Positions 2,431 to 6,556 of a stretch of DNA of 64,000 bases are shown one piece after another (position 1 is the first letter of the stretch; each line of letters starts with the position of its first letter). The notes beneath the pieces were generated by a model, which had not been told where the DNA came from, did not search any database, and worked only from the letters and a program-made list of their open reading frames with translations. Source of the stretch: an uncultured Acidobacteriota bacterium (GTDB taxonomy: Bacteria; Acidobacteriota; UBA6911); assembly GCA_963809485.1 (NCBI GenBank), contig CAWEJX010000001.1, positions 1 to 64,000 of the forward strand, written 5' to 3'. The translations under genes and the position numbers were made by a program.

Positions 2431-2549
2431 ATGTCCGCTATTGGCACAAAGCGGACGTGGGCTAGTGCACTGCAAACGTCCGCTTTCGGGGGTCAAGCGG
2501 ACATACGGTTTTGCACTGCAAATGTCTGCTTTTGACCCAAAGCGGACAT
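2431..2549. repeat. REP-like cluster, 3 palindromic units
   Basis: units at 2431-2458, 2476-2504, 2522-2549 (ATGTCCGCT..AGCGGACAT) joined by 17-bp linkers ending GCACTGCAA. Confidence 0.9.
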
Positions 2550-3387: not shown

Positions 3388-3540
3388 GCTCGGTTACGAT
3401 TGTCAGGGACACCGTCCGGTCAATTACGGATGTTTACGTAAATGCAAAAAAACGACAAGCTGTACGGAGCCAGCAACGCTCCAGCGCTTTCAAGACAGTC
3501 TGATTTCCGGCGTCTTAATATTCATCTTAGCGGAGATGGT

Positions 3541-3669
3541 TTACTTACCAAGACGCACAGCGGAAGTCGCGAATGCTTGGGCAGCCGGCTCCTGAATGCT
3601 GTTGAGTACAACGACGCCAATGATAGCGAGAATGACCGCAGCAACGCAGGCCAATAAGAATGCCTTCAT
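3541..3669 (-). CDS. small exported/membrane peptide (not in ORF track)
   Basis: 42 aa MKAFLLACVAAVILAIIGVVVLNSIQEPAAQAFATSAVRLGK, purine-rich RBS (AAGGGGG); resembles a small rhizobial protein type. Confidence 0.6.
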   Translation of the reverse strand: MKAFLLACVAAVILAIIGVVVLNSIQEPAAQAFATSAVRLGK

Positions 3670-3929
3670 GATGACGACCCCCTTTTTTCGGCAGTTACAT
3701 TCGTCCTTTATTCGTTTTTATTCCGATGACTGACCGGCGCCAGGTTAGCGTATGGACAATCTCAGAGCGGCATCCAGAGAGCCATACTGCTCGCTGCGCA
3801 TACGATTGACGTGTGCAGTTAAGTGACAGATTTTTTTCCCACTGAGATTACAATTCACAAGCATTTCGAGAAGCGCCATCAGCTGATGGCGCTTCAGGTA
3901 GTCACGCAACGGTCTTAGACCAGCCCAGA

Positions 3930-4349
3930 TCAAGCCATCGTGCTAACAGGCGCTCGCTCAGTCGGCGCCGCTTCGCTTGACGCCCGCTCCGGCGCCGGTA
4001 GCTGCAGCACGGTGGCCTGCTGACCCTCGCGCAGCTCCGTGACCAGGACAATTTCCCCATCGGGGAACTCCAGCGCGTCGTGATGCATGGTCGGCTGGTC
4101 TAGATTGATCTGCCGAAAGCGCGCGACCTTCTGCTTGAGGCTGCGACGGCGAAAGATACGGAATGCTCCATCGCATTCCACGTCTTGCACAAACGCAACT
4201 TCGGTTCCAGGCAGCAGGCAAACGGCCACGGTGGGCTCGCCGATTGCGGCAAAGCCGCGCGTTAGCGAGTTCCTGAATCGGGTCGAGACTAGCTTGTCGC
4301 CCACGCGTGCTGGACGCGATGCGACAAACTGGAGGCTATAGTCGCACAT
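3930..4349 (-). CDS. conserved hypothetical protein (MCDYSL family, Rhizobiales)
   Basis: MCDYSL..SRPA.VGDKLV..RGFA..AVCLLPGTE..HHDALEFPDG..GQ.ATVLQLP; GGGAGA RBS. Confidence 0.8.
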   Translation of the reverse strand: MCDYSLQFVASRPARVGDKLVSTRFRNSLTRGFAAIGEPTVAVCLLPGTEVAFVQDVECDGAFRIFRRRSLKQKVARFRQINLDQPTMHHDALEFPDGEIVLVTELREGQQATVLQLPAPERASSEAAPTERAPVSTMA

Positions 4350-4642
4350 GATCAATATCTCCCTGTTGCTGCGAACAGCCGGGAAGTATCCTTCGATCCA
4401 AGTGCGTGAGAGATCGGGCTTGGGTCCGGGATTTCCCGGATGTGTCGCGATCCTGGTCGGATGCTAGCGGCATTGATGACTGCTGGGAAGCAGGCAATTT
4501 CTGTCCGGCGACCGTCGCGGAATAGCTGCTCGCCAGCGCAGACGAGGTGATCGAAATAAAACGCTATTTGCTGCGCTGCATGAGTTCTCGCTATTGGCAC
4601 AAAGCGGACATCCCTCGTTGCACCGCACATGTCCGCTTTTGA

Positions 4643-4987
4643 TGCTGTGGACGGCGCCCCCTCTGCGGCATCAAGAGTGCTATAGGGTGGTTGCGTGAAG
4701 TGAGAGCGACAAGGAGGTGAGGCCAGGCAACGACGACGGCGTTTGAAGTTTTGAAGAAATTGGCGAGGACATGACGACGTAATGCAGACACGGTCGTTCC
4801 GGGGATCGGGAGAACCCGTTTGGGTCAGCGCACTTTAAAGTGCGTGTTTTTGATTGGGACCCGATCCGCGCAGAGCATTAGGGCCAGCGGCCTAACCCGC
4901 CGCACAAACAGGCCGGCACACATGACCGCACCCGACCAATGCTGCGCAACGTCAGAAAGTTCTTGCCAAGGCGCCGTCCACACATGA
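4643..4987 (+). mobile_element. non-autonomous IS1111-type (IS110 family) mini-element, 345 bp, no transposase
   Basis: perfect 13-bp sub-terminal IRs TGTGGACGGCGCC (4646-4658) / GGCGCCGTCCACA (4970-4982); TGA core at both junctions (4640-4642, 4985-4987); orphan SD AAGGAGGTG (4711-4719) with no ORF behind it. Confidence 0.85.
4772..4954 (+). ncRNA. putative bridge RNA / seekRNA with target- and donor-binding loops
   Basis: closing stem 4772-4796/4933-4954; target guides TTTGGGTCA (4819-4827) and GTTTTTGA (4846-4853); donor guides AGCATTA (4874-4880) and CACACATGA (4917-4925). Confidence 0.75.
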
Positions 4988-5102
4988 CCCAAAGCGGACA
5001 TGCAAGAATGGCCTGAGGTCCAATTGCATAGCAGACGACCGAACTACCTATTTTTGACGATATCGAATCGCCGCTGATATAGGCGGAAAGCGCAGAGACC
5101 GC

Positions 5103-6064
5103 TCAGGGATCGAGCGAGGCGAGATAGGCGACGATCGCCAGCATGTCCTCCTGTTCGAGGTTTGACACCACCTGGGCCATCAGCGGGCTCCACTCGCCGG
5201 TGCGCGAGCCATGACGGAAGTCATAGAGCTGGCGAAACATGTAGCTCGGCGAGCGGCCGGCGATTCTCGGCAGCGGCCCGAGCCCCTTGAGGTCTGGTCC
5301 GTGGCACGGGCCGCATGCGAGCGTCTTTCCTGCCCCTTTCGTCACCAGCACCTCGCCTTTCGTCAGGCTGCCGACCGGAACGTAGGCGGTGAAGGTCGAG
5401 CGCGGATCGCGGCTCTCGAACCGGATGAGATCATCGGGGATTTCGAGGATACGCTGGCCTAGCGGCTCGCGTTCACCACCCTCGGCGGCTGCCCAGAGCA
5501 GACCGGCGACGTAGGCTTTAGGCGCCGTGTCGCTCTCGACCACCTTGATGCGCTTGCGCGGCTGCAAGGCGGAGAAATAAGTCGCCGCAGCTTCCACCTC
5601 GGGATCGGTGATCGGCTTTGACAGCGCGATCATCAGGGTGGGTGGCGAGCGACCGGAGACAGCGGTTCCGCGCGCGCCACTCTTATAATCCGCCATCTGT
5701 TGAATGATGTAGCTCTTCGGCAGGCCGGCGAGGTCCGAGTTTTCGGGACCGCCGGGCCCGTCGGCACGATGACAGTAGCCGCACGCGAAGACGTCGGGCT
5801 TGCGGCCACTGGCAACGATATCGGGCAACGGCCGTGGTCGCCCGGATGCCAGATCGGCGCGATGAACCTATCCCGCAGCTGGCTCCAGGTATAACCGGCG
5901 GTGCTGTCCGGCACGCGCACGGGCCTGCCATCGTCGACCGGGGGCTTATGGTTCGGGTTATTCGCCGGATAAGCCCACTGCGGCGGGGCGTCCGCCGCCA
6001 TGGTGGCCGCGGTCGGCAATGCCACAGAAATGATGGACGCAAAGAAAGCTGTAGCGATTTTCAT
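5103..6064 (-). pseudogene. periplasmic diheme c-type cytochrome (c4-like), one frameshift
   Basis: signal peptide plus PQWAYP in ORF 5633-6064; CGYCH and CGPCH heme motifs in ORF 5103-5828; a single missing base at ~5830 would join them (HG-PLPDIV). Confidence 0.8.
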
Positions 6065-6437: not shown

Positions 6438-6556
6438 ATGTCTGCTATTGGCCCTTAGCGGACATCGGGCTGAGCGCGCCGAATGTCCGCTTTCGGGGGT
6501 AAAGCGGACATGCCTTTTTGCGCTGCAAATGTCTGCTTTTGACCCAAAGCGGACAT
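6438..6556. repeat. REP-like cluster, 3 units
   Basis: units 6438-6465, 6483-6511, 6529-6556. Confidence 0.9.

Follow-up and report, generated by a model that had tools for sequence, protein, structure and literature searches.

How does a piece of DNA without a transposase gene come to split a repetitive extragenic palindrome (REP) at one point? The question is raised by a 64,000-nucleotide stretch of contig CAWEJX010000001.1 from an uncultured Acidobacteriota bacterium (hereafter the window, to whose positions all coordinates refer), in which ATGTCCGCTTT (4629-4639) and TGA (4640-4642) are parted from a second TGA (4985-4987) and CCCAAAGCGGACAT (4988-5001) by an insert of 345 bp, or 348 bp counting one TGA copy. 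The insert (hereafter the mini) holds no transposase gene, the longest overlapping open reading frame (ORF) being 66 aa. Judged by sequence comparison, it is in all likelihood a non-autonomous derivative of an IS1111-group insertion sequence (IS), similar to a MITE (a miniature transposable element with inverted repeats), that keeps both ends and the whole bridge RNA (seekRNA) gene with self-matching guides, and its recombinase would be supplied in trans.

Chance does not readily produce the motifs that define the insert. The 13-bp inverted repeat TGTGGACGGCGCC matches the window twice (0.00 expected), at 4646-4658 (+) and 4970-4982 (-). The motif TGACCCAAA matches four times (0.56 expected), namely in an internal guide (4819-4827, -), in the right flank (4985-4993) and in uninterrupted REPs at 2533 and 6540, and CACACATGA matches three times (0.25 expected), including the guide (4917-4925) and the right end (4979-4987). 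The split REP, the sub-terminal repeats and the lack of a transposase ORF thus stand as the first-pass annotation of this DNA had described them. When the repeat is read as 12 bp, terminal extensions of 7 bp (TGATGCT, left) and 3 bp (ACA, right) remain, and sub-terminal repeats with such asymmetric extensions are the mark of the IS1111 group in Siddiquee et al. 2024 (PMC11187229; this and the other sources below are cited from part of their text). Insertions of all examined relatives lie in one orientation at GTCCGCTnn-TGA-CCCnnnGCGGAC with only TG(A) repeated at both junctions, as befits the site- and orientation-specific insertion without target duplication of this group. A long guide-bearing non-coding region 3' of the transposase gene, also typical of the group, is represented by the homology of 4756-4987 to four relatives (L006, L007, L008 and L123). 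The DEDD transposase with both domains is lacking from the insert itself, which is short and non-coding and has ends common to autonomous IS, as MITEs do.

Full-length relatives identify the type of parent. A blastn search of 72,556 plasmids with the mini gave 210 matching records, each limited to mini bases 113/119-348, and none of the plasmids covered at least 80% of the mini. In the three annotated records inspected, the match lay directly 3' of an IS110-family transposase coding sequence (CDS) or of an IS630 insertion in it; these were Nitrobacter hamburgensis plasmid 1 (88% identity over 4756-4987), where the IS630 insertion separates the CDS from the match, Bradyrhizobium japonicum (75%) and Sinorhizobium meliloti (70%). 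The first 56-83 bases of the mini match sequence immediately upstream of the same transposase CDS, and its left end (LE, 4640-4695) is 81% identical to the corresponding sequence in L006. A scan for the terminus of the right end (RE) in contigs of one genome per species found at least 117 stretches, and all 117 were compared with the mini by blastn. Among the matches listed were dozens of full-length elements with LE and RE about 1.37 kb apart, carried mostly by soil Alphaproteobacteria (Xanthobacteraceae, Pseudolabrys or Bradyrhizobium records). The closest among them, L123, is 1374 bp long with an RE 95% identical to that of the mini and a 344-aa ORF containing PF01548 (DEDD_Tnp_IS110) and PF02371 (Transposase_20); L134 encodes both domains as well. 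The IS1111-type origin proposed in the first-pass annotation is borne out by these homologies, and the parent with matching ends that it suggested looking for was found. Since the transposase is absent from the mini and present in L123 and L134, the mini is a derivative and not an autonomous member of the group. By these comparisons, 4640-4987 is an internal-deletion derivative of a Xanthobacteraceae-type IS1111-group IS of soil alphaproteobacteria that has lost essentially all of its transposase gene.

The same architecture (LE, a remnant of about 60 bp, RE) is shared by minis of six or more other genomes, with 75-96% identity. Mini bases 1-348 are matched by two 354-bp copies in G041 (91-92% identical), nine 362-bp copies in G042 and one 363-bp copy in G044 (86% identical). 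G043 has one copy (96% identical) with a disrupted right terminus, matching bases 1-334, L115 has one of 353 bp, and the single copy in L068 is truncated by the contig end. A 184-bp derivative, L051, speaks against calling the window copy minimal. The nine G042 minis are 95.9-100% mutually identical and occupy eight REP loci, with flanks that share no more than 87% identity, over part of their length. They outnumber 9:1 the parent of that genome, a 1378-bp element with an intact 345-aa ORF whose protein is 81% identical to that of L123. In G041, the two minis reside alongside at least four full-length parents. Multiplicity, as expected of a MITE, is therefore seen in G042 and G041, and the bin of the window has one copy. 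Minis of this architecture have thus multiplied elsewhere, in genomes that carry an intact parent as well. The concern that the window might hold a single copy whose relatives all retain the transposase is thereby removed; a count of same-length copies, which had also been proposed, gives one in the source bin.

Homology of the remnant extends across the 348-, 354- and 363-bp forms (z scores 10-16), which places the deletion before the insertion in the window. The 362-bp form has in its place the 3'-terminal ~65 bp of the transposase gene (z 11), with 91.7% identity to the full-length resident starting at base 1082. Between the two kinds of remnant the link is weak (z 2.4), and one ancestral deletion behind all minis is likely but not proven. 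A tree of the 232-nt right ends was poorly resolved (one starred branch); minis need five changes in the free tree, and a single one is compatible with it. L112 is not a head-to-tail dimer of minis, a reading that was considered and rejected; instead, a 559-bp unit is duplicated in tandem there (L112/L132, G042:C4:20152-21472). The unit combines a sister subfamily's solo left end, which is itself inserted at a REP, with 197 bp of DNA bearing REPs and the 362-bp mini, and two of the nine G042 minis lie in this duplication. The joint of the units reads RE-TGA-LE, as expected of a circle junction, and looks as if a composite circle had formed and re-integrated. A sister subfamily shows a tandem duplication of the final 24 bp of its right end (ACCCGTGGGCGCCGTCCACACATGA; L066 2818-2865, L089 ~260-300).

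The RE encodes a conserved structured RNA. Fold analysis of 54 aligned relatives used a curated set of 32 pairs in 7 helices; pairing holds in 96.0% of cells, and at 15 of the 32 pairs both sides have changed. None of 500 shuffles equalled the observed value, and slid partners give 19-38% paired. The window copy retains all 32 pairs (other minis 29-32), and its single-sequence fold has a z score of -3.1 against shuffles. The stems and the two internal loops named earlier from the window sequence coincide with this consensus, and structural covariation supports both loops, the architecture expected of a bridge RNA or seekRNA. For 4300-5300, nothing relevant matched in Rfam 15 at E values up to 10 (one chance match, E = 9), and the family may be missing from Rfam.

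Each of the four guides in these loops fits the target or the ends of the window copy (positions in Table 1). In the target-binding loop, TTTGGGTCA is the exact complement of TGACCCAAA in the right target, and GTTTTTGA agrees with the left target GCTTTTGA at 7/8 positions, the mismatch being a U-G wobble. In the donor-binding loop, AGCATTA complements TGATGCT (core plus LE) at 6/7, with a wobble at a position kept in the two nearest subfamilies, and (C)ACACATGA is identical to RE plus core. The first-pass annotation read this last guide as CACACATGA with a 9/9 match; the base behind the ninth position, C4917, is absent from the other 53 aligned elements and from covering public-run contigs and may be an assembly error; the family-typical match is 8/8 (ACACATGA). 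The top-strand complement comes first, in agreement with the reversed guide order noted earlier and reported for IS1111 by Siddiquee et al. 2024 (PMC11187229). As an observation apart, the target-loop hairpin GCGCACTTTAAAGTGCGT followed by the guide GTTTTTGATT (4828-4855) scores intrinsic-terminator-like, and the address variant itself yields the U-run after the stem.

The guides had been lined up on a TGA core. Their fit to the element's own target and ends holds, but the true core is probably TG, judging by the junctions of a sister subfamily (L007, L050 4247, L067 2534, L098 1504), which read TGA on the left and TGG on the right and thus have TG in common. There, the guides for right target and left donor agree with TGG, and that for the left target with TGA. 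The left-target and left-donor guides would then extend into the product junctions, which is reminiscent of the handshake guides of IS621 (PMC11208158).

Guides also change with the sequences they face. Elements ending CACACGTGA carry guide ACACGTGA, and those ending CACACATGG carry ACACATGG and have right flanks starting TGGCAC or TGGCCC opposite guides GTGCCA or GGGCCA. The subfamily inserted at TGACAGTTTA carries guide TAAACTGTC, and where left ends start TGATGCG, TGATGTG or TGATGAG, CACATCA-type guides replace AGCATTA. The mean longest exact match of guides was compared between an element's own flanks or ends and those of other elements with 2000 permutations, tests that are inflated by kinship of the sequences. 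It was 7.06 (own) versus 5.72 (other) for the right-target guide, 4.62 versus 3.46 for the left-target guide, 4.88 versus 4.31 for the right-donor guide and 7.94 versus 4.29 for the left-donor guide, and the observed value was reached by four permutations for the right-donor guide and by none for the other three. These longest-match values were preferred because the alignment of one subfamily is shifted by a column, which makes counts of exact substrings too low for the right-target guide. In 51 of 54 rows, the left-donor guide includes the last 8 nt of its own element, and the three exceptions are one mismatch, one deletion and one extraction offset. The left-target guide fits least well, as the last 5 nt of the left target are exact in only 8/34 rows and many elements have CGA where the target reads TGA. 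Guides thus covary with both target and donor strands, with the weakest signal at the left target, and the covariation check suggested in the first-pass annotation came out in favor of guide function.

Taken together, these features suggest how the mini would move. The DEDD recombinase of a full-length relative, loaded with bridge RNA, would act on it in trans. The target-binding loop would pair with the REP halves (GCTTT-TG / TG-ACCCAAA) and the donor-binding loop with the circle junction (CACACA-TG-ATGCT), the mini moving as a circle with an expected junction of CACACA-TGA-TGCTGTGG, and its own RNA could serve as the guide. A conserved CTTGCCA near the right end could be the -35 box of a circle-junction promoter, and no convincing -10 box was seen by eye in RE-TGA-LE.

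Public sequencing runs hold further traces of the element. Two RNA libraries from different studies contain contigs identical to window 4724-4916 and 4731-4819 that cross the mini-specific junction, and other contigs of these libraries join 4758 to transposase-gene ends and thus come from full-length elements; the contigs are compatible with DNA carry-over and cannot prove transcription, nor do they reveal RNA ends or copy number. In three public runs (two RNA libraries, one DNA run), independent contigs span the mini-specific junction with 0-3 differences. In the peat DNA run X1, a contig over 4630-4781 (LE, junction, RE) has a depth of 104 versus about 5 for the unique flank, summed contig depth being a rough guide.

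Does the mini use its own RNA? Tentatively, we see a real possibility that its own bridge RNA programs a recombinase made elsewhere to recognize the A-type right end and a preferred REP variant, in which case the guide gene would be a mobile element in its own right. In G042, the target guides of mini and resident parent are identical, and the one differing base of the left-donor guide matches the respective right end (A in the mini, G in the parent). The co-resident full-length copies of G041, G042 and G043 combine ACACGTGA with a CACACGTGA end, whereas all minis combine ACACATGA with a CACACATGA end. Both G041 minis lie at GCTTTTGA, to which their own guide GTTTTTGA fits at 7/8 (with a wobble-compatible mismatch) and the GCTAACGA of the four residents at 5/8, and the left flank of the G043 mini is GTTTTTGA, identical to its own guide at 8/8. 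The pairing of guide base and right end in G042, the flank fit in G041 and the full match in G043 favor use of the mini's own RNA.

The same copies can be read otherwise, as true MITEs whose RNA gene is vestigial and persists only because of where it lies, flanked by the deleted transposase gene and the right terminus that the element cannot do without; guiding RNA would then come from a full-length element whose guides are identical or almost so. The A-type full-length elements L123 and L122 have the target and donor guides of the window's mini, so a parent's RNA could have done all the guiding, and the identical target guides of the G042 resident agree with this. The left-donor guide has been lost from L068 (29-bp deletion) and L115 (14-bp deletion), hence the RNA is not kept in every mini copy; L051 has lost the 5' half of its target loop. 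In addition, the non-coding region functions in trans in the experiments of Siddiquee et al. (PMC11187229). A vestigial gene fits poorly with the separate guide and end types of minis and co-resident parents, with the sites of the G041 minis, with the full set of pairs in the window copy and with mini-specific contigs in RNA libraries of two studies, and we regard this explanation as rather unlikely.

For the window copy, one also has to consider that a full-length IS formerly occupied this REP and left behind a one-off deletion relic that is immobile. Such a history would explain why the copy is single in its bin, why the bin has no cognate recombinase and why an empty site was not found. However, the recurrence of LE, remnant and RE in at least six other genomes, in multiple copies in G042, argues against a one-off event, as do the homology of the remnant, which makes the deletion earlier than the insertion, and (as a rough guide) the depth in run X1; such a relic is very improbable. 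Hardly any credence is due to an assembly artefact, that is, a full-length IS collapsed or mis-joined in an error-prone contig. The neighboring phaC in three frames suggests indel errors, C4917 lacks support in other data, and the first 8.4 kb are compositionally odd for the bin, but the junction is crossed by the independent contigs of three public runs and the same architecture occurs in metagenome-assembled genomes from other assemblies.

Several observations weigh against a mobile mini with a working RNA of its own, in addition to the shared guides of L123 and L122, the guide deletions in L068 and L115, the kinship in the permutation tests, the poor left-target fit and the possible DNA carry-over. 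The mini is single-copy in a 21-contig, 6.04-Mb bin and was found in none of 24 same-genus genomes; it is also absent from 15 of 16 same-class genomes. No cognate recombinase is present in the bin, whose sole IS110-family recombinase is 24-25% identical to the parent type. Among 201 genomes of the family of G045 (three candidates scored per genome), no minis were found and the RE occurred in five. A promoter scan of 4500-5100 found no sigma-70-type promoter in the linear element. Finally, joints in public runs revealed no empty-site allele of the locus, only other REP loci or unrelated letters between the two sides; likewise, metagenome contig L146 is 96% identical to window 3529-4614 and continues into a different REP arrangement, providing no filled/empty pair.

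How much the bin can tell depends on where this segment comes from. On the contig, which begins inside a REP, the REP family (ATGTCCGCTTT...AAAGCGGACAT) does not extend beyond the first 8.4 kb, and 13 of 33 genome matches of AAGCGGACAT fall there. The tetranucleotide make-up of this segment is among the top 3% of distances from the bin mean. Its genes are 65-69% identical to those of mini-bearing genomes, with the REPs at 80-93% and the mini at 78-96%. The first 8.4 kb may therefore be foreign, either recently acquired or mis-joined (chimeric), and a single copy in the bin then tells little. Being single and without a cognate recombinase, the window copy is most likely inert in this bin.

Two further observations concern the bin. 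A PhaC (poly-hydroxybutyrate polymerase) gene at 262-2416 is spread over three successive ORFs (262-1005, 932-1675 and 1682-2416), with PhaC_N split over the first two, and is either a pseudogene or a product of contig indel errors. Another repeat, GGTGCGGAC(C/A)AAAAC(C)TGTCCGCTTTTT, consisting of a hairpin and a T-run, occurs at G000:C20:1032171-1032460, C4:255703, C4:378053 and C6:389059, and three of its copies lie about 3 kb from the only IS110-family transposase gene of the bin (C20:1028230-1029267).

Table 1. Parts of the split REP and of the inserted mini, in window positions
Feature	Position	Strand	Remark
Upstream REP arm AAAGCGGACAT	4601..4611		Third REP arm; pairs with arm 4629-4639
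Left target, left half of split REP, ATGTCCGCTTT	4629..4639	+	Left-flank type GTCCGCTnnTGA recurs at insertions of relatives
Left TGA copy (probable core TG plus A)	4640..4642	+	Part of 7-bp left extension TGATGCT in the convention of Siddiquee et al. (PMC11187229)
Left end (LE), 56 bp	4640..4695	+	91% identity to bases 1-54 of the 1374-bp L123 element
Left sub-terminal inverted repeat TGTGGACGGCGCC	4646..4658	+	Motif count in window
Deletion remnant, ~60 bp	4696..4755	+	Common to 354- and 363-bp minis (z 10-16)
Right end (RE), whole 3' non-coding region of parent IS, 232 bp	4756..4987	+	95% identity to L123 bases 1144-1374
Bridge/seekRNA core, outer stem GTCG to outer stem CGAC	4793..4936	+	32/32 consensus pairs intact
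Target-binding loop, stem GATCGGG/CCCGATC	4804..4866	+	Guide TTTGGGTCA 4819-4827, hairpin 4828-4845, guide GTTTTTGA 4846-4853
Donor-binding loop, stem GCG/CGC	4868..4929	+	Guide AGCATTA 4874-4880, inner stems 4882-4914, guide (C)ACACATGA 4917-4925
Right sub-terminal inverted repeat	4970..4982	-	Motif count in window
Right target, right TGA copy plus right REP half CCCAAAGCGGACAT	4985..5001	+	Read from sequence
Uninterrupted target GCTTTTGACCCAAAGC in neighboring REP	2528..2543	+	Motif match
Second uninterrupted target GCTTTTGACCCAAAGC	6535..6550	+	Motif match

Compared with IS1111-group IS such as ISEc11 and ISPa11, which targets Pseudomonas REPs, the mini is alike in its 12-13-bp sub-terminal repeats with 7-bp left and 3-bp right extensions (PMC11187229, PMC11208160), in the RNA gene in the right non-coding end with the top-strand complement before the bottom-strand match, and in orientation-specific, duplication-free insertion at a REP target. 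It differs in having no transposase gene and in its size of 345-348 bp versus about 1.37 kb. The location of IS1111 bridge RNAs in the right end was reported by Durrant et al. 2024. In the work of Siddiquee et al. 2024 (PMC11187229), the IS1111 non-coding region is functional whether it is provided in cis or in trans, and a cargo-carrying mini IS is mobile, so that ends, RNA and a recombinase in trans suffice for movement. The window mini is a natural counterpart of that engineered element, with the RNA in cis between the ends and no other cargo.

The nearest natural analog is MITEPpu9 of Pseudomonas putida, associated with ISPpu9 (Pares-Guillen et al. 2025, PMC12288879). Both are non-autonomous IS110-family derivatives in REPs with IS-like ends and a small-RNA gene, and MITEPpu9 is multi-copy and forms circles with the transposase of its parent. 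Its cargo Ssr9, however, is not a bridge RNA and is dispensable for transposition, the bridge RNA of ISPpu9 lying upstream of the transposase gene (PMC12288879), whereas the cargo of the window mini is the guide RNA itself. A 2026 preprint (bioRxiv 10.64898/2026.08.14.744561) describes partial IS110 fragments that re-integrate and small recombinase-only IS110 elements, which show that sub-genomic pieces can circularize and re-insert and that RNA and recombinase are separable; its loci are IS110-type, and the part of its text cited here describes no amplified RNA-only IS1111 family. In the literature searched, we found no published description of a natural IS1111 MITE retaining its bridge RNA; related elements or MITEs could be listed in the supplementary tables accompanying PMC11208160, PMC11187229 and PMC12288879.

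The message of the window copy itself is modest, since this orphan lies in a segment whose place in the bin is doubtful. Descriptions of bridge/seekRNA recombination usually have one gene plus one RNA as the unit. If our explanation of the family is correct, an RNA module with its ends would be enough for spread where the enzyme is shared, and such minis would be a natural system in which to test whether trans-mobilization draws on cis-encoded guides. They would also flag a class of elements that annotation pipelines overlook or take for small RNAs or REP-associated repeats, and provide compact (~350 bp) natural donor designs for engineering. Should the minis in addition use their own RNA, recombinase-free, self-addressed RNA-guided elements would spread, diversify their addresses and compete with their parents, forming a natural split bridge-recombination system.

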